DNA of 41,456 nucleotides from a virus, in the UHGV virus genome UHGV-1460059, one strand, 5' to 3'. The position numbers were made by a program, and so were the translations under genes. The number at the start of each line of letters is the position of its first letter. Positions within the stretch are counted from its first letter, which is position 1. This document shows, piece after piece, positions 7,510 to 26,565 of the stretch. The notes under the pieces are model-generated. The model worked only from the letters and a program-made list of their open reading frames with translations, did no database searches and was not told the DNA's origin.

Positions 7510-7669
7510 GTGTGCGTTTCTCCTGCTCTATCCTGTTTGCCTGACTGACCAGCAAGGGAATTTCACTGATCGGCATATTCAGCAATTCGAAAGGATTAAT
7601 GCGCCAGTAGCTGGCGCAGTCAAAGAAGCGATCAGTGAGGTATTCAGCCGTCAGGCCTGGAGGAAAAAA
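7496..7669 (-). CDS. -1 frameshift extension of the tail assembly chaperone
   Basis: The -1 frame is open from the slippery heptamer at 7663-7669 down to 7496, ending across the tape-measure start. Same arrangement as the lambda G/GT and P2 E/E' chaperones. Confidence 0.45.
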   Translation of the reverse strand, partial: FFPPGLTAEYLTDRFFDCASYWRINPFELLNMPISEIPLLVSQANRIEQEKRTHGGI

Positions 7670-7920
7670 CCAGCCACAAGCCACGCCGCTGCATTCAGGT
7701 CTGCCGGAGACATCTGGTCGACAGAGCTTTGCGGCACTTTCGCCAGCCGCACAATGTATTTCGACACCACATGCGCCAGAAGTCTGACTGACTCATCCTG
7801 ATTCATCTGGTAGGGATACCCCAGCTCGCGGACATCCTTCCCGGTGGGTTCATCAAACTCCAGTACGGAGAGTGTCTCGCCATGAGCAGTAATCGGTTTC
7901 TTTAACTCAAGCTCTTTCAT
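7651..7920 (-). CDS. Tail assembly chaperone (0-frame product)
   Basis: 89-aa ORF between the tube and tape measure genes. Its 3' end carries a U UUU UUC heptamer (minus-strand complement of 7663-7669) and is overlapped by a -1 frame ORF. Confidence 0.5.
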   Translation of the reverse strand: MKELELKKPITAHGETLSVLEFDEPTGKDVRELGYPYQMNQDESVRLLAHVVSKYIVRLAKVPQSSVDQMSPADLNAAAWLVAGFFLQA

Positions 7921-14843: not shown

Positions 14844-14994
14844 GCGTCCCCCTTCTGGCCATAGCCAGTGCGCCCACCAGCAGTAAACCGCCGGACAGCA
14901 TCAGAGCCGGAGCCATACCAAACTGCAGGTAAAACCCGCACGTAAGCAGGCCAAAACCAGCCAGCCCGATAACATCAGCAATTAGTGATTTCAT
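14833..14994 (-). CDS. Small hydrophobic protein (53 aa) between terminase and portal
   Basis: Own translation: [57 protein letters not shown] overlap with the terminase stop and 3' overlap with the portal start. Below the ORF-track cut-off. Confidence 0.3.
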
Positions 14995-16724
14995 AGAATT
15001 AAGAGAGCATCGTCCGGATCAAGAGATGAGAGGAAATCGTCGGGTTCTTTGAGCATTGCCCGACCGATCGCCATAATCAGCGCAACCGCACCATCGATTT
15101 TGTTTTCCGCCTGCTCCTTGACAGGCTTCACCACATCATCGTTACCCGGAATGGTTTTGCCGACCACGTTGCCGATACACCAGGTCATGATGGGATTGCC
15201 GTCATGATGAAAGCGCCCCGATTCAATCGCCGCTTCCAGCTCTTTCATCGGATCGGACATGTTGGTGTAGTTCTGAATGATGGTGATGGGGTTCAGGTCT
15301 TCATCAGCAAGGTCATGCGACAGCCCGGTCGCCCCGAAGGGGTCGATGGGTGACTCACTGACCGGGCTGATTTTGTTCGCCGCTTTGGCCTCCTCGAGGA
15401 TGTACCGATAATCCACCTCCGCACCAGCGGTAACAGTCAGAACGCCCATTTCCACCCATTTCTGAAAGCGTTCGGCTGTCCGGCGATCTTCATTTTTCTC
15501 GACGCTGTACACCGTGTCATACGGTACCCAGAAACGCGGGGCCACACTGTAGTAATGCGTTTTACCGTCAATCTCGCGGGTATAAAGTCGCGCCATGCTG
15601 TTCATATCCAGCTTACGCGCCAGGTCAAAGGCCAGAATGCACGGCTGCCCCTCGAACTGCTCAAGGGTCAGTGATTTATCCTCGCAGCTCTGCCAGCTCA
15701 CCAGGTTGAAATACGCCGAACGCGCCGACACCCAGATATTGAGGTGTTTTGTTTTAAAGACGTTTGCCAGACGGGCGTTATTTTTCGCACGCTGCTGCTG
15801 ACTTAACAAAAATTCGCGATAAACCGACACGCCAATATTTGGATTGGCTTTTTCCAGCACCTGCGGGTCGGTCCAGTCGTCACCTTCATCAACGGTATAG
15901 ATGATCCCGAACAGTTCATCGTTGGGTACCGAACCGTTGAGCATCTCGATAACTTCCCGCCGCTTGTCGTAGCACGGCCCCTCAATGTTGTACCCGGCGG
16001 TGGTGATGGCCCACATCAGTGGCTGACGTCGCGCCCCCATCCCGGTAAGCATCGTGGTATAAAGCGCATCGGTGGCGTGCTCGTGATATTCATCCACCAC
16101 CGCACAGTGGGGTGATGAACCATCACCAGGGTTACCGATCAGCGGTTCAAACCGCGCACCATCCTCCGGACGGTTCATGTTTGAGGCGTTAACCTCAATC
16201 CCGAACGCTTCCGTCAGCATGGGTGTGCGTTTACACATCAGTCGTGCCGGACGAAAGACTTCCCATGCCTGTTTCTCCGTCGTGGCACCGGAATACACTT
16301 CCGCGCCGAACTCGTTATCACAGGCAAAACAATACAGGGCGACACCGGCAGAGATTGCCGATTTGCCGTTCTTACGGGGGATTTCGGTATACACCTCCCG
16401 GAAGCGGCGCAGCCGGGAGCCTTTATTGACCCAGCCAAACGCGCAGCAGATCACAAAGAGCTGCCACGGCTCCAGCGTGATGGGCATCCGTTTGAATGCC
16501 CACTCACCCTTGGTGTGCGGCAACAGCTGAATAAATTTCGCGGCCCGTTCAGCCAGGTCCTTGTCGAAGCGGTAACGAAACGACTTACTTTTTTCCGCCA
16601 TCAGGTCATCAAGATGGCGCTGGCAGGCCTGAATCACAAACTGGCAGGCCACAATCTTTCCGCGCACGACATCACGGGCATACTGATTTGCAGCATTTAC
16701 GTTGGGGTAAGATTTCCGGCTCAT
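14991..16724 (-). CDS. Terminase large subunit
   Basis: 577-aa ORF downstream of the small terminase with an overlapping junction; size and position typical. Confidence 0.85.
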
Positions 16725-17224
16725 GATTCGATAATTTTCAGAAACGGGTTAGTGGCTTTCTTCTGCCCCGCCAGGCCAATCAGACGCTGGCGGCTGCTGG
16801 GGTCGAGTCCGAGCATTGCCCCCGTACTGCTCATCTCGGACTCCTGTTCTTTTTTGGCGGTCAGCTCCGGATTTTTGACCATGCCGCCCATTGCACCGGT
16901 GATGGTGTTGCCCTGTCTGGCAATATTTTTCACGGCACGTCGCCAGAACTCATAGGCCACGCACCACCGCTCAAGCACCGCGAGGTCAGTCACGCACAGC
17001 AGGCCCTGACCGCAGAGTTCTTTGGTTGTCAGTTGCCACATGATCGTGGCGAGAGGGAGATCTTCTTCAGCGAACCACTCCGGTGGCTCAACACCTTTGA
17101 TGGGCGTAAAAACAGGTTCATCTTTGTTCAGGGCTCGCTTGCCGGGGTTTCCGGCCAGCGCCTTGCGCGCCGTTGGCTTGGGGCGACGCCCGGAACGCCC
17201 CGCCGTTCCAGCCATATGCGGCAC
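16721..17224 (-). CDS. Terminase small subunit (P27-family-like)
   Basis: 167-aa ORF with a basic N-terminus ([30 protein letters not shown]…) immediately upstream of the large terminase. Confidence 0.7.
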
Positions 17225-17340: not shown

Positions 17341-17691
17341 TTACTTCAACCGTTCACGGGCCGTCTTCGCCTTATGACATGGCCAGCACAGGCTCTGCAG
17401 ATTACTGTCAGCGTCAGTGCCGCCATGCGCCTTAGGGATAATGTGGTCAACGGTTTTCGCCTCACGCACCACACCGGCACGCAGACATAACTGACACAGG
17501 CCTTTGTCACGCTTCAGCACACGTTCACGGATGGTATCCCACTTCGAACCGTAACCGCGCTGATGACGTGACAGGCCTGGTTTGTATTGCTTCCAGCCTT
17601 CGCTTTTGTGGCTTTCGCAATAGCCTGACGGGTCAGTAGTGGTATTGCGGCAACCGCGAACGCGGCAGGCTTTTGGTGTACGTGGTGGCAT
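17341..17691 (-). CDS. HNH endonuclease (packaging-associated)
   Basis: HNH motifs CRVRGC…CESH…VDHIIP…H…N…CWPCH. Start placed at the ATG at 17691 (AAGGAA upstream) rather than the ORF-track start at 17778. Confidence 0.75.
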   Translation of the reverse strand: MPPRTPKACRVRGCRNTTTDPSGYCESHKSEGWKQYKPGLSRHQRGYGSKWDTIRERVLKRDKGLCQLCLRAGVVREAKTVDHIIPKAHGGTDADSNLQSLCWPCHKAKTARERLK

Positions 17692-17764
17692 TAATTGTTT
17701 CCTTAAGCCATTACGATGCGTCTGAAAATGAGTTAATCTGAAAATTCCTTCACTATGCGAGAGC

Positions 17765-18070
17765 ATGACAATGGTCATAGGACAAGAAGATCAGAAATGC
17801 TGCCCGGCTTGCAATTCAGATGCGACCTGGCAGAACCGTGATACCGCTTGGTTAATTAGATGCCCGATGTGTGAAACATTTCTCATCAGGAATTCCACCA
17901 TTGAAATTTTGCGAAGTGACGTTGTGTATCGGACATTAGCTGGTGACCTTCTCAAACAAGAAGGTGGGTGTGACTACATGCTTACAAGAGGAAGGCTTGC
18001 GAACTTCGCGAAAACCCAGCTCCCAAAATCAAAGTTTCAGGAATACTTCCCTGGTGACAACTACGAATAA
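17765..18070 (+). CDS. Hypothetical Cys-rich small protein (101 aa), opposite strand to the surrounding late genes
   Basis: Two CxxC pairs (CCPACNSD…CPMCETF). Fills the only minus-strand coding gap between the HNH and Rz1 genes; a 13-bp hairpin follows its stop. Confidence 0.35.
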   Translation: MTMVIGQEDQKCCPACNSDATWQNRDTAWLIRCPMCETFLIRNSTIEILRSDVVYRTLAGDLLKQEGGCDYMLTRGRLANFAKTQLPKSKFQEYFPGDNYE

Positions 18071-18110
18071 GCCATTACAAAGCCCACCCGCAGATGAGCT
18101 TTGTAATGGC
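18071..18110. terminator. Hairpin between convergent genes (candidate bidirectional terminator)
   Basis: Perfect 13-bp inverted repeat gccattacaaagc / gctttgtaatggc with a 14-nt loop, between the plus-strand ORF stop (18070) and the Rz1 stop (18110). Flanking U-tracts are weak. Confidence 0.4.
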
Positions 18111-18367
18111 TACTGTGAGTTGCGTGACGTTTCTATCTTCCTGATACTGGCCTTGTCGATGTTGCACTGGCCCAGCGCCGAAAGCAGGCTCACATTCAGA
18201 TCCAGACTGGCCCCATAGGTCAGCGGGTCGGGAATGACTGGCTGGGGCGTTTCAGTGGTCAGGCTTGTTGGCAGCGGTACCGCCGGAACCGGCACGTAAA
18301 CTGTTCGCGTACTTCCGCAACCGGTCAGCAGCGGCAGCAGGCACATGACGTGAAGCACAATCATCAT
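18110..18367 (-). CDS. Rz1-like o-spanin lipoprotein
   Basis: Lipobox LLTGC after a hydrophobic signal (MMIVLHVMCLLPLLTGC) and a Pro-rich mature part, in an alternative frame overlapping the Rz 3' end. Start chosen at the internal Met. Confidence 0.55.
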   Translation of the reverse strand: MMIVLHVMCLLPLLTGCGSTRTVYVPVPAVPLPTSLTTETPQPVIPDPLTYGASLDLNVSLLSALGQCNIDKASIRKIETSRNSQ

Positions 18368-18644
18368 CCGCAACAGCCACTTTGATATCTTCCTGGGTTC
18401 TCTGTGACTCCAGTGCGATCTGCTGTTTTGCATGCTGGTTAGCCTCTATAACTGTATTGATGATTTGCAGTGATTGCAGAACGTTACGGGTAATGGCAGT
18501 TGCTGATTCAGCATTTCGTACAGCCTCATCAGCACGCTCCTTTTCGTGCTGATATTTGCTGTAGTAATGTCCAGCAGACCAGATGAAGGAACCAATGACG
18601 CTAACAACGAAGGCAACAATAACCAGCTTATATCTCAGCTTCAT
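18252..18644 (-). CDS. Rz-like i-spanin
   Basis: N-terminal TM helix (KLVIVAFVVSVIGSFIW) followed by a coiled-coil region; immediately downstream of the endolysin gene. Confidence 0.6.
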   Translation of the reverse strand: MKLRYKLVIVAFVVSVIGSFIWSAGHYYSKYQHEKERADEAVRNAESATAITRNVLQSLQIINTVIEANQHAKQQIALESQRTQEDIKVAVADDDCASRHVPAAAADRLRKYANSLRAGSGGTAANKPDH

Positions 18645-19104
18645 TTACTACCCCACCAGCTTTTTTAAATCGGGCAATCAGGTCACCGATTTTATGTTCA
18701 TACTGACCGTAACCTGCACCAGGTAACGACGCCCAGATATTGCTGCAACGGTCGATTGCCTGACGAATACTGCCGCGGTCAATCATCGGTAAAGCACCAC
18801 GCTCTTTAATCTGCTGCAGAGCTACAGCGTCCTGGCTTTCTGGAGAAAAATCTTTCAGGCCAAGCTGTTTACGGTAAGCATCCCACCAGCGTGAAAGAAG
18901 CTGGTAACGTCCGGCAGCTGTTGATTTGAGTTTGGGGTTTAGCGTGACAAGTTTGCGAGGGTGATCGGAGTAATCAGTGAACAGTTCGCCACCAACAATA
19001 ACATCATAACCGTGGTTACGTGTCGGTTGTCGCCCGTTATCCGTTCCTTCTGACCATGCCACCATATCCAGGAAAGCTTTACGCTGGGAATTTAGTGCCT
19101 GCAT
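18628..19104 (-). CDS. R: Endolysin, lambda R-type lytic transglycosylase
   Basis: 158-aa product (…QRKAFLDMVAWSEGTDNGRQPTRNHGYDVIVGGELFTDYSDHPRKLVTLNPKLKSTAAGRYQLLSRWWDAYRKQLGLKDF…) is near-identical over most of its length to the phage lambda R protein as I recall it. Confidence 0.9.
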   Translation of the reverse strand: MQALNSQRKAFLDMVAWSEGTDNGRQPTRNHGYDVIVGGELFTDYSDHPRKLVTLNPKLKSTAAGRYQLLSRWWDAYRKQLGLKDFSPESQDAVALQQIKERGALPMIDRGSIRQAIDRCSNIWASLPGAGYGQYEHKIGDLIARFKKAGGVVNEAEI

Positions 19105-19519: not shown

Positions 19520-20572
19520 TTATTTCCCCACCAGTTCACTTACCTCTTTCACCGTCTGATTAAACCGCTCTGACTCAAGTTCAACACCTAACGCCCGACG
19601 CCCCAGCGCCATTGCTGCTTTTATTGTGGAACCGGATCCCATAAAGAAATCAGCAACCAGATCACCAGGTCGACTACTGGCATTGATTATTTGCCGGAGC
19701 ATATCCGCCGGTTTCTCGCACGGATGTTTACCCGGGTAGAACTGAACGGGCTTATGCGTCCAGACATCGGTATAAGGCACGGAGACTGATACGGAGAAAT
19801 AGCGCCGGAGAGATTTAAACTCATCCAGCAATTCAGAATATTTGCGATTCAGTGAATCATAAGATGCCACCAGCTGGTGGTGTGGTTGTTCCAGTTGTTG
19901 TTCCTGAAACTTCTCTGCCGCTATACGGGAAAACAGTGCCTGTAACTTCCGATAGTCAGCCTCATTCGGCAACTGCCACTGACTGGCACCAAACCAGTGG
20001 GAAACCATATTTTTCTTACCTGTGGCTTCGGCAATTTGTTTTGCCGTTATACCCAGTTCGGCACGAGCATCCCTGAAATACGATATCAGCGGTGCCATTA
20101 TGTGCTGTTTGAGTTCCCTTTCTTTTGCCGCATAGCCGTCACTTTTGCCGCGATATGGCCCCTGGTAATGTTCAGCAAACAGAACGCGCTCTGTGGCAGG
20201 AAAATATGCGCGCAGACTTTCTTTATTACACCCATTCCAACGTCCGGACGGCTTCGCCCAGATGATATGGTTAAGCACGTTGAAACGTTCACGCATCATG
20301 ATCTCAATATCAGATGCCAGGCGATGCCCACAGAACAGGTAAAGGCTTCCGGCAGGTTTCAACACCCGCCAGAACTGGGCCAGACAGTGGTCCAGCCACT
20401 TAAGGTAATCTTCGTCCCCTTTCCACTGATTGTCCCAACCGTTAGGTTTCACCTTGAAGTAAGGCGGATCGGTAACAATCAGGTCAATGGAATCATCAGG
20501 CAGGGACTGAATAAAATGCAGGCAATCAGCGTTGATTAAATCAACACTGTTTATTTTTACAGTATTTTTCAT
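19520..20572 (-). CDS. DNA methyltransferase (amino-MTase, beta class: DPPY then FxGxG)
   Basis: Motif IV LIVTDPPYF near the N-terminus and motif I DFFMGSGST near the C-terminus. Located between the late promoter region and the lysis genes. Confidence 0.8.
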   Translation of the reverse strand: MKNTVKINSVDLINADCLHFIQSLPDDSIDLIVTDPPYFKVKPNGWDNQWKGDEDYLKWLDHCLAQFWRVLKPAGSLYLFCGHRLASDIEIMMRERFNVLNHIIWAKPSGRWNGCNKESLRAYFPATERVLFAEHYQGPYRGKSDGYAAKERELKQHIMAPLISYFRDARAELGITAKQIAEATGKKNMVSHWFGASQWQLPNEADYRKLQALFSRIAAEKFQEQQLEQPHHQLVASYDSLNRKYSELLDEFKSLRRYFSVSVSVPYTDVWTHKPVQFYPGKHPCEKPADMLRQIINASSRPGDLVADFFMGSGSTIKAAMALGRRALGVELESERFNQTVKEVSELVGK

Positions 20573-20722
20573 GGATCAGTAAGCGTAACTCTGGTAGGCT
20601 CACTCTGCTTTTGCGCTAAAGCAGTGGGCCGTGGTTCGCTTGTGACCAGTAAGCATGAGCGAATGGCTGGCAGGTGCTACCAACACCCACCAGCCGCCCA
20701 TTTTCACAGCAGGAAACCGCCA

Positions 20723-20950
20723 TTACTGGCAGCGTCTGAATTTATTCCCGTACCCGCCGTTATCCTTCGCCAGACCCGCCAGAACTAACTGAGTCAGTAT
20801 TAACTGGCACCGGGCTTCGCTTACTCCGGTAGTTCTCGTCATCATGCGTGGCGTTACCCACTTGTCAGCAGGTAAGAAATGAAGGACTGCGGCGGCGGTT
20901 TCTGTCATATCTTGCTGTTTTAGCATGTCTTTTTCCCTTCTGGTTAACAT
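20723..20950 (-). CDS. Hypothetical small protein (first ORF downstream of the late terminator)
   Basis: 75-aa ORF, no recognised motif. Confidence 0.3.
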   Translation of the reverse strand: MLTRREKDMLKQQDMTETAAAVLHFLPADKWVTPRMMTRTTGVSEARCQLILTQLVLAGLAKDNGGYGNKFRRCQ

Positions 20951-21046
20951 GACATACCAATAACTCTTGTCTAAAAATCCAGCAAGATAAAAAGTCAGTA
21001 TTCACGACCACCAGCGTGTTTACTGTACTGCACCAAGTTTACAGGT

Positions 21047-21073
21047 ACAAAAAACCCGCTCAGTGGCGGGTTC
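21047..21073 (-). terminator. Intrinsic terminator downstream of the late promoter (tR'-like)
   Basis: On the minus strand: stem AACCCGC, loop CACTGA, stem GCGGGTT, followed by TTTTTTGT. Confidence 0.55.
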
Positions 21074-21118
21074 TTAAATCTTATCAACGGTAGACATACA
21101 AAGCCCATCGTTGGGAAA

Positions 21119-21147
21119 ATCTTATCCATGTTTTTTGAAAAATGCAA
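21119..21147 (-). promoter_or_regulatory. Candidate late promoter (PR'-like) just downstream of Q
   Basis: Minus strand TTGCAT (21147-21142), 17-nt spacer, TAAGAT (21124-21119), about 45-70 nt upstream of the terminator. Confidence 0.45.
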
Positions 21148-21178
21148 GCATCATGTCGCCATCTTCGGCGAAAATCAT

Positions 21179-25627: not shown

Positions 25628-26565
25628 CCCCTGAATCCTGCCGGGATCTGGCTGTAGTCCACGTTGTCGTAACTGGATTTGAAGTACGGGTCTTCGCGTT
25701 TTTCAGTGTACGTGCTTACGGACGGCGATAAGCGCAGGGAAAGCTCATCCCATTTTTCCCGCAGCTTCGACGGGCTGAGCACGTTACGGCACCAGAACGG
25801 ATCGCGGCTGACGCGGCTGTACATCTCGCAGATTTGTTTGTGAGTACGACCATCCTGCACACACATCAGGCGAATTTCGTTTGCCCAGGCTGTCCAGTTC
25901 GGTTCTTTGGGACGAACCACCTCGCCGTCACATTCGGCGGCCTGCTCGTACAGGGCGATGATTTTTTTCCAGAGCCACTGTGCGCAGGTCAAATCATCCT
26001 GCGTTCCCCACTGGCGCTTTTTAGGGCTGAATACAACCGCATCAGGATGGCGAGTTAAAAAATCCTGTTCATCCGTCTGCGTGTCCGGTTGCGAAGCGTC
26101 CGGACGAGAAGTTTTTTTATCTGACGGATCATGTTTTGATTTTACTGACGGATCCCCGCCAGATTCTGACGGGTGAAAACCCGCTTTTTTGCCAGATTTC
26201 GACGCATCAAATTTTGACGGGTCAGATTTTGATGCGTCAGATTTTGACGGGTCAGAATCTGACAGTTGAGAAAATGCCGCTGCCTGAAGCTTCGCAACGT
26301 TAAGCTGATAAACATTCGACGCATTGCGGTTACCCTGGCGACGCGCCTTACGCGTTAACCAGCCTTCTGCTTCCAGCCGTGCGATAGCCGTTCTGACGGT
26401 ACTCATCCCCGCGCCAATCTGGCGGGCAATGGTTTCAATTGATGGCCAGCACACACCTTCGTCATTACTGAAATCAGCCAGGCGGGCCATAATTGCCACG
26501 CTGGATAATTTCATGCCTGATGCAGCGCAACCATCCCATACATAGCCGGTTAATTTAGTGCTCAT
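25624..26565 (-). CDS. Replication initiator (lambda O analogue) with N-terminal winged HTH
   Basis: 313-aa protein; N-terminal HTH (…SIETIARQIGAGMSTVRTAIARLEAEGWL…); central low-complexity DPSKSDASKSDPSKFDASKS linker encoded by a DNA iteron array. Confidence 0.5.
   Translation of the reverse strand: MSTKLTGYVWDGCAASGMKLSSVAIMARLADFSNDEGVCWPSIETIARQIGAGMSTVRTAIARLEAEGWLTRKARRQGNRNASNVYQLNVAKLQAAAFSQLSDSDPSKSDASKSDPSKFDASKSGKKAGFHPSESGGDPSVKSKHDPSDKKTSRPDASQPDTQTDEQDFLTRHPDAVVFSPKKRQWGTQDDLTCAQWLWKKIIALYEQAAECDGEVVRPKEPNWTAWANEIRLMCVQDGRTHKQICEMYSRVSRDPFWCRNVLSPSKLREKWDELSLRLSPSVSTYTEKREDPYFKSSYDNVDYSQIPAGFRG
26119..26265. repeat. Iteron array (candidate origin of replication) inside the initiator gene
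   Basis: Tandem ~15-bp units TTTTGACGGGTCAGA / TTTTGATGCGTCAGA / TTTTGACGGGTCAGA plus degenerate copies (ATCTGACGGATCATG, TTACTGACGGATCCC, ATTCTGACGGGTGAA), flanked by T-runs. Confidence 0.55.

Follow-up and report, generated by a model that had tools for sequence, protein, structure and literature searches.

The window analysed here is the complete genome of an SfV-like temperate phage of E. coli (UHGV-1460059, 41,456 nucleotides), whose nearest sequenced relatives are the phages vB_EcoM-720R4, SfV and SfIV and whose late genes are carried by the minus strand. Between its lysis and packaging genes, a short open reading frame (ORF) runs in the opposite direction and ends at a strong hairpin. 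The question raised by this locus is whether the frame is a gene, how it came to stand among late genes and whether the hairpin belongs to it.

Coding evidence for the plus-strand frame

On the minus strand, a putative DNA methylase gene (19520-20572) is followed by the holin gene, the endolysin gene (18628-19104), Rz (18252-18644) and the Rz1/LysC o-spanin gene (18110-18433), the right neighbour of the frame. Downstream of Rz1/LysC, an unannotated gap of 418 nt precedes the HNH endonuclease gene (17341-17691, minus strand), which is the left neighbour and belongs to the packaging module together with the genes of the P27-type small terminase TerS (16721-17224, minus strand) and of the large terminase TerL (14991-16724, minus strand). 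The plus-strand frame of 101 codons with two CxxC pairs that the earlier note had described was recovered inside this gap, at 17765-18070. That the gap would be the only one in the late operon is roughly correct, but smaller gaps occur at about 20573-21178 and 7510-7919. Translation from 17765, where the first in-frame ATG lies, gives a product of 101 aa; every homologue starts at the equivalent of the second ATG, at 17771, and the coding sequence is accordingly given as 17771-18070 (plus strand, 99 aa and a stop codon).

The window version of the frame could be aligned codon for codon, without a single insertion or deletion, with four diverged versions (L003, L006, L007 and L008). Among these five nucleotide versions, the pairwise dN/dS was 0.07-0.13 wherever dS was measurable, and third codon positions carried most of the differences (for example 8/5/27 and 16/10/36 by codon position). 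All alternative frames of the homologous DNA were broken by 3-13 stops. The diverged copies share 41-91% amino acid identity and keep the reading frame, their length varies between 96 and 104 aa and nearly all of them begin with MVIG. Conservation and codon-level selection had been named in the earlier note as a way to check the frame, and both were found. Judged from these alignments, the ORF is a genuine gene under strong purifying selection.

Relatives are few. A search of 5.8 billion proteins returned six of them, with 61-99% identity, and when 1.84 billion cluster representatives were searched exhaustively with an HMMER profile, only four clusters came back; in IMG/VR contigs, relatives were found down to 41% identity. 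In view of the dN/dS values, the small number of clusters and the IMG/VR relatives, the family is, as far as these comparisons reach, real, selected, very small and restricted to phages. One of the six proteins, P0006, is a frameshifted fusion of 148 aa encoded by an ENA contig of 972 bp that corresponds to window 17771-18218; in this variant, the ORF is shifted into the +1 frame (window ORF 17943-18218), which points to a pseudogene or to an error of sequencing.

No homologue was detected by tblastn in 50,697 phage records, nor in a scan with one genome per species, and 32 of 5,426 complete E. coli genomes carry the ORF at 99% identity or more. Strains in which the region is identical to that of the window include CFSAN061770, KSC1031 and EC6868. 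RefSeq/PGAP annotates it in none of these 32 carriers. Our literature search found general papers on morons and mosaicism only, and neither this gene nor its hairpin. The lack of annotation and of tblastn matches, together with the failure to find a consensus promoter (see below), would be expected of a chance antisense frame in a non-coding spacer, in which case the region would be an intergenic insert with a hairpin. Such a frame would hardly show dN/dS values of 0.07-0.13, a third-position bias and no indel across lineages in which dS is near saturation, with stops in every other frame and conservation down to 41% identity in viral contigs. We consider this alternative extremely improbable; the codon-level analysis effectively refutes it. 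A conserved and selected gene has thus been missed by RefSeq in all of its complete E. coli carriers, an example of a small antisense prophage gene which escapes annotation pipelines.

The annotation of the adjacent lysis genes also calls for a remark. At positions 3419-3953 of L001, equivalent to window 18110-18644, PGAP calls a LysC of 107 aa and flags Rz (DUF2570) as an incomplete pseudogene, whereas the Rz ORF of the window is intact. The embedded Rz1 gene probably misled the annotation of Rz, and the true Rz1 start probably lies nearer to the LLTGC lipobox.

A mobile cassette between lysis and packaging genes

The insert, of about 390 bp, is missing from SfV and vB_EcoM-720R4, and the spacer between Rz1 and HNH in SfV measures 26 nt. 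Both HNH and Rz1 are intact in the window and undisturbed by the insert, whose GC content is 44% against 54-59% in the flanks. Since SfIV, vB_EcoM-689R6 and 118970_sal3 bear different inserts at the same place, the Rz1/HNH junction is a variable hot spot.

Homologues of the ORF were found in at least seven unrelated lambdoid packaging/lysis backbones. In the contexts compared (L003-L008, L011-L014, L031 and L033), the terminase, portal and lysis modules differ. One of the neighbouring packaging types consists of a 200-aa gene in the small-terminase position and a large gene of about 490 aa, with or without a GIY-YIG gene between them; the others are a lambda-like DUF1441 gene with gpA, a ParB_N-like type, and a 344-aa gene with a 441-aa gene. 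In spite of this diversity, the homologues always lie between lysis and packaging genes and opposite to the late genes, and the 5' end of each is turned toward the small-terminase side, either directly or with one small gene between. A second plus-strand ORF next to the homologue of L012/L013 was considered as a paralogue and proved not to be one.

The proposal of the earlier note that the ORF is a moron is well supported by its purifying selection, its absence from the collinear SfV, its low GC content and its recurrence, antisense and at the same junction, in many unrelated backbones. On the evidence of these genome comparisons, the ORF is an ordinary mobile moron and the cassette is horizontally mobile. 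Passages of PMC3594210 and PMC2629481 describe morons as independently transcribed, horizontally spread units, and passages of PMC3594210 and PMC7067206 as independent transcription units often expressed in lysogens; for accessory loci in general, frequent expression in lysogens is stated in part of PMC7067206. Like the lambdoid morons of the HK97/HK022 definition, the window ORF is an extra gene among essential late genes, missing in collinear relatives, and its cassette differs from its flanks in base composition, as do the morons treated in passages of PMC3594210 and PMC2629481. Current views are not overturned, and the cassette fits the moron concept well.

The lysis/packaging site holds unrelated morons in other phages, lambda bor being an example: it stands between Rz/Rz1 and the packaging genes and is read against the direction of the late operon. 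The window ORF has the same position and orientation as bor. The two products differ, since that of bor is an envelope lipoprotein and that of the ORF is a predicted cytoplasmic zinc-ribbon protein.

The constant position of the gene next to the packaging genes, and divergent from them, would also be explained if its function were linked to DNA packaging, where it might, for instance, regulate or guard the terminase or HNH. In every context, the 5' end does face the small-terminase side with at most one small gene between. However, the neighbouring systems (P27-type TerS with HNH, lambda Nu1/gpA-like, ParB_N-like and others) are mutually unrelated, which makes a specific packaging partner unlikely. 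Furthermore, close relatives such as SfV package their DNA without the gene, and the site is shared with unrelated morons. A packaging function is therefore very improbable in our judgement.

Two accessory sites of these phages deserve mention. In L031 (4385-6066), the gap between lysis and terminase genes also holds, next to the ORF homologue, a 181-aa gene and a gene for a 379-aa protein with a DGQHR motif, which was read by eye as DndB-like; this hot spot may collect defence-type cargo. The 350-aa minus-strand ORF at 19520-20572, which is a putative DNA methylase by reading only, lies beside the holin gene on the side away from the lysozyme gene. CFSAN061770 is identical to the window across the moron and has plus-strand genes annotated as 'nucleoid-associated protein' at the methylase site (L001 5035-6424). 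This holin-adjacent site is a second variable accessory site.

The limits of the cassette were sought in the similarity between its versions, which extends from GTTAAGCCATTACG, some 65 nt ahead of the ATG, to the hairpin. At the left module boundary, TAAGCCATTAC (17704-17714, plus strand) is an 11-nt direct repeat of the left arm of the hairpin with the stop codon (18068-18078). On the minus strand, this left copy closely precedes the AAGGA Shine-Dalgarno sequence of HNH, and it is conserved with small variations in the other cassettes. The arm repeat and a GCTGA/TCAGC mini-palindrome suggested a decayed second hairpin at this boundary. This candidate was rejected: the folds were inconsistent in structure, with energies from -1.7 to -9 kcal/mol, and the covariance model was silent. 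In our interpretation, an SfV-like prophage would have acquired a moron cassette of about 400 bp (approximately 17704-18112) at the junction of Rz1 with the HNH/terminase genes.

As regards expression, a Shine-Dalgarno-like GAGAG (17759-17763, plus strand) stands 7 nt before the ATG at 17771, and a GAG(A) motif is found at the same spacing in the diverged homologues. No sigma-70 consensus promoter scoring at least 9/12 was found for the ORF. A candidate weak promoter, TTACGA-17 nt-TAATCT (17711-17739, plus strand), matches the consensus at 6 of 12 positions. Its -10-like hexamer is of the form TAnnnT, weak in sequence and conserved in position, about 37 nt before the ATG in the window leader; other subfamilies have TATGAT at -36 (L014/L028) or TACACT at -39 (L011/L031/L038). 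A relaxed promoter scan gave no single site common to all subfamilies. No intrinsic terminator was detected by scanning either strand between 17300 and 18500. The classic moron has its own promoter and terminator; for the cassette of the window, neither a consensus promoter nor a U-tract terminator was found.

Transcription of the gene would start at a weak promoter within the conserved leader of about 65 nt and would be separate from that of the Q-dependent late operon. Because of this presumed independence from the Q-dependent operon, expression would most plausibly occur in the lysogen.

The encoded protein and its comparison with Lar/RalR

Conservation is highest near the N-terminus of the protein, in a putative zinc ribbon with four cysteines, CPAC and CPMC separated by 16 residues (residues 11-36; 17801-17878, plus strand). 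The cysteines are C13/C16 and C33/C36 when the 101-aa product is numbered, that is, C11/C14/C31/C34 in the 99-aa product. Close homologues all have both CxxC pairs, the second of which is replaced by Cx3C in distant ones; cysteines at other positions vary.

The C-terminal half (residues 45-97; 17903-18061, plus strand) is predicted to be helical and resembles an HTH_32-like repeat unit. When compared by hhalign with the repeats of P0009, it gave a probability of 85% and an E-value of 6e-6. P0009 is a protein of 869 aa with eight tandem repeats of about 62 aa between residues 186 and 682 approximately, which fall just short of the HTH_32 threshold. The AF2 model (pLDDT 80.7) consists of four strands followed by four helices, and it was confident in two of the five models only. 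By our own count, the protein is roughly neutral in charge, which is atypical of DNA binders.

Searches of Pfam, PHROGs, NCBIfam and PADLOC for a known function or family gave sub-threshold zinc-ribbon matches only, and a PDB sequence search with the family profile gave nothing below an E-value of 0.24. YdaE, the zinc-binding protein of Rac, was considered as a relative and rejected, no similarity being found. From the cysteine pattern, the repeat comparison and the model, we infer a four-cysteine zinc ribbon joined to a small HTH-like domain of three or four helices.

Among the sub-threshold matches, the one to the Lar/RalR family has to be weighed, in which case the protein might be a restriction-alleviation factor or a RalR-like DNase toxin, possibly with an antisense-RNA antitoxin. 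PF14354 (Lar_restr_allev) matched the ribbon in all five members scanned, the window included, with 17.6-22.7 bits and E-values from 1.2e-4 to 4.8e-3, every score being below the Pfam gathering cut-off of 28.6 bits. The Lar-like PHROG 6422 was matched with an E-value of 0.026. Against K-12 RalR, whose annotation is that of an endodeoxyribonuclease toxin countered by the sRNA RalA, hhalign gave an E-value of 1.7e-4 with a probability of 49.5% only, over 31 columns restricted to the generic CPxC...CxxC ribbon (residues 7-37).

What is common to the ORF product and the Lar/RalR proteins (PF14354; ralR of Rac) is thus a small size, a prophage origin, a CPxC...CxxC ribbon with 16-17 residues between the pairs and weak but consistent profile matches. 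The remainder of RalR does not align with the C-terminal half of about 60 residues, the ORF protein has an additional helical domain of about 55 residues, and no antisense sRNA partner was evident at the locus, where Rfam gave no match. For these reasons, a protein of the Lar/RalR family appears quite improbable on the profile evidence.

With low confidence, we rather favour a small cytoplasmic zinc-ribbon and HTH-like protein, made by the prophage, which probably binds either nucleic acid or a protein of the host or phage and in this way serves for regulation or conflict rather than for catalysis. The very small family (four clusters among 1.84 billion) keeps a strikingly fixed position in temperate phages although no fold could be assigned to it, and on this account a role in lysogenic conversion or phage conflict can reasonably be proposed for the protein.

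The hairpin at the cassette junction

The conserved hairpin of about 45 nt (18069-18112, minus strand) is the best of only five short-range inverted repeats in the window. The inverted repeat described in the earlier note is indeed perfect, its stem being of 14 bp (18070-18083/18098-18111, with a loop of 14 nt) and not of 13. It had been placed exactly between the convergent stops; it does lie at both of them, but it overlaps the TAA of the ORF (18068-18070) and, at its base, the stop codon of Rz1 (18110-18112, minus strand).

The RNA fold was more stable than those of shuffled sequences on both strands (z = -5.0 for the plus and -7.6 for the minus strand). The late-operon strand was favoured, with -31.6 kcal/mol on the minus against -22.7 kcal/mol on the plus strand in the window, and the same preference was found in nine of ten related copies folded both ways (for example -23.6 vs -10.2 kcal/mol for HK022a and -15.4 vs -5.1 kcal/mol for L006a). 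Read on the late strand, the window hairpin forms about 19 pairs with a UGCG loop. In the structural alignment, 15 pairs of the inner stem are G·U when read on the minus strand and would be C·A mismatches on the plus strand, and double-sided compensatory changes are seen at several pairs. When pairs were counted, 95% of the cells were paired, 10 of 17 pairs were changed on both sides and none of 500 shuffles did as well, the statistics being drawn from nine sequences only, some of them related and one subtype off by one register; pairing fell to 34-49% when the partners were slid. No match at the gathering score was found with Rfam over the whole window, the only hits being chance miRNA-like matches with E-values of at least 0.14.

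A query of 45 nt detected the hairpin in 97 phage records, including Sf6, HK544, mEp460, IME10, a Stx2a phage and phages of Klebsiella and Salmonella, and the ORF is encoded in none of them. In all but one of the annotated records listed, the hairpin is intergenic or unannotated. The family ranges over the post-lysis region of enterobacterial temperate phages, lambdoid and P22-like.

With the covariance model, every copy was found on the late strand, and two copies each were present in Sf6 (L019, 502-549 and 1170-1213, with no annotation at either), HK544 (L020, 885-932 and 1186-1229), HK022 (L010, 836-880 and 1032-1075), L006 (5299-5343 and 5666-5709) and L008 (688-732 and 995-1038). One small gene is enclosed by the pair in Sf6, L006 and L008, typically with the hairpin following immediately on a late-strand stop codon.

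The earlier note had taken the hairpin to close the ORF. As a rho-independent terminator of the moron, it would travel with the gene for that reason, and its position agrees with such a role: it begins at the ORF stop in seven of nine hairpin-bearing versions and 35-50 nt after it in two more, and the plus-strand fold is stable in the window. However, no U-run follows it on the plus strand, where the tail is ACUGUGAG (the minus-strand tail is UAUUCGUA), and the terminator scan was negative. In addition, the fold is better on the late strand in nine of ten copies, the 15 G·U pairs would be C·A mismatches in the moron transcript, and the 97 phage records have the hairpin without the ORF. The Sf6 hairpin lies between two late-strand genes, the second late-strand copy of L006 is just beyond a 75-aa late-strand gene, and the hairpin is absent from the distant homologues L031-L037, L031 having instead an apparent stem and T-run, as read from its sequence. 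The claim that the hairpin closes the ORF is therefore not supported, and we regard a private terminator as unlikely, with an appreciable residual chance.

In L031, about 20-70 nt past the stop of the homologue (4291), an A-run, a stem and a T-run follow one another and look, by eye, like a bidirectional intrinsic terminator. From such comparisons, the 3' element of the cassette appears to be interchangeable.

Our best reading is that the hairpin belongs to a family of elements of about 45 nt which would work as late-strand RNA and mark cassette junctions. It may stabilise or process the mRNA, it may be a preferred recombination joint and, lying between convergent stops, it may as a secondary effect keep antisense transcripts of the moron from running on into the lysis genes. 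In keeping with Q antitermination in lambdoid phages generally, Q-modified polymerase would be expected to pass through the hairpin on the late strand.

Several known elements offer a comparison, and the properties of REP elements and T7 processing sites served here as the analogy. Like the E. coli REP and T7 RNase III-type hairpins, the phage element is an imperfect palindrome of about 45 nt in a polycistronic transcript, past stop codons; it also shares with them G·U pairs confined to one strand, a repeated occurrence at numerous gene junctions and two stems separated by a 2x2 internal loop. It differs in that its sequence is unlike REP, that Rfam has no family for it and that it is restricted to the post-lysis region; a part in processing or stabilisation would follow by analogy. 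The 'boundary sequences' of Sf6/HK620 are likewise short, conserved and placed where mosaic modules begin or end (bsq7 in the Sf6 record), and the window hairpin is the point where inter-cassette similarity ends. Unlike these sequences, the hairpin copies of Sf6 are unannotated, and bsq7 is a different site.

A further step would be to see in the hairpin an undescribed strand-specific element, RNA or single-stranded DNA, which delimits cassettes, processes or stabilises late mRNA and serves as a crossover point for morons; by analogy, it might be the phage counterpart of REP or attC-like junction elements. This reading fits the hairpin pairs of Sf6, HK544, HK022, L006 and L008, the solo copy of the 11-nt arm at the far end of the cassette and the recombinant look of the window hairpin. 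As to the latter, the loop and right arm are 93% identical to a HK022 copy and the left arm is like the usual hairpin of the cassette; because the two parts resemble different copies, a crossover inside the window hairpin is suggested. Taken in full, this cassette-delimiting element seems unlikely to us, and the late-strand RNA hairpin at cassette junctions is kept as the preferred reading.

Taken together, a selected protein carried by a moron cassette and a late-strand hairpin at its junction appear to us the probable explanation of the locus. Against it stand the lack of a sigma-70 consensus and of an intrinsic terminator, the 6/12 score of the candidate promoter, the absence of a PGAP call in the 32 E. 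coli carriers, and a roughly neutral protein with a confident fold in two of five AF2 models. The hairpin family is more unusual than the moron cassette: it is widespread, absent from Rfam, marked by covariation and strand asymmetry and recurrent at cassette junctions, and it could bear on late-mRNA processing and on moron exchange.

Elsewhere in the window, an inverted repeat with arms of 18 nt, 89% complementary and separated by a spacer of 2 nt, is present at 26201-26238 in the early/replication region and could be an operator or an origin element.
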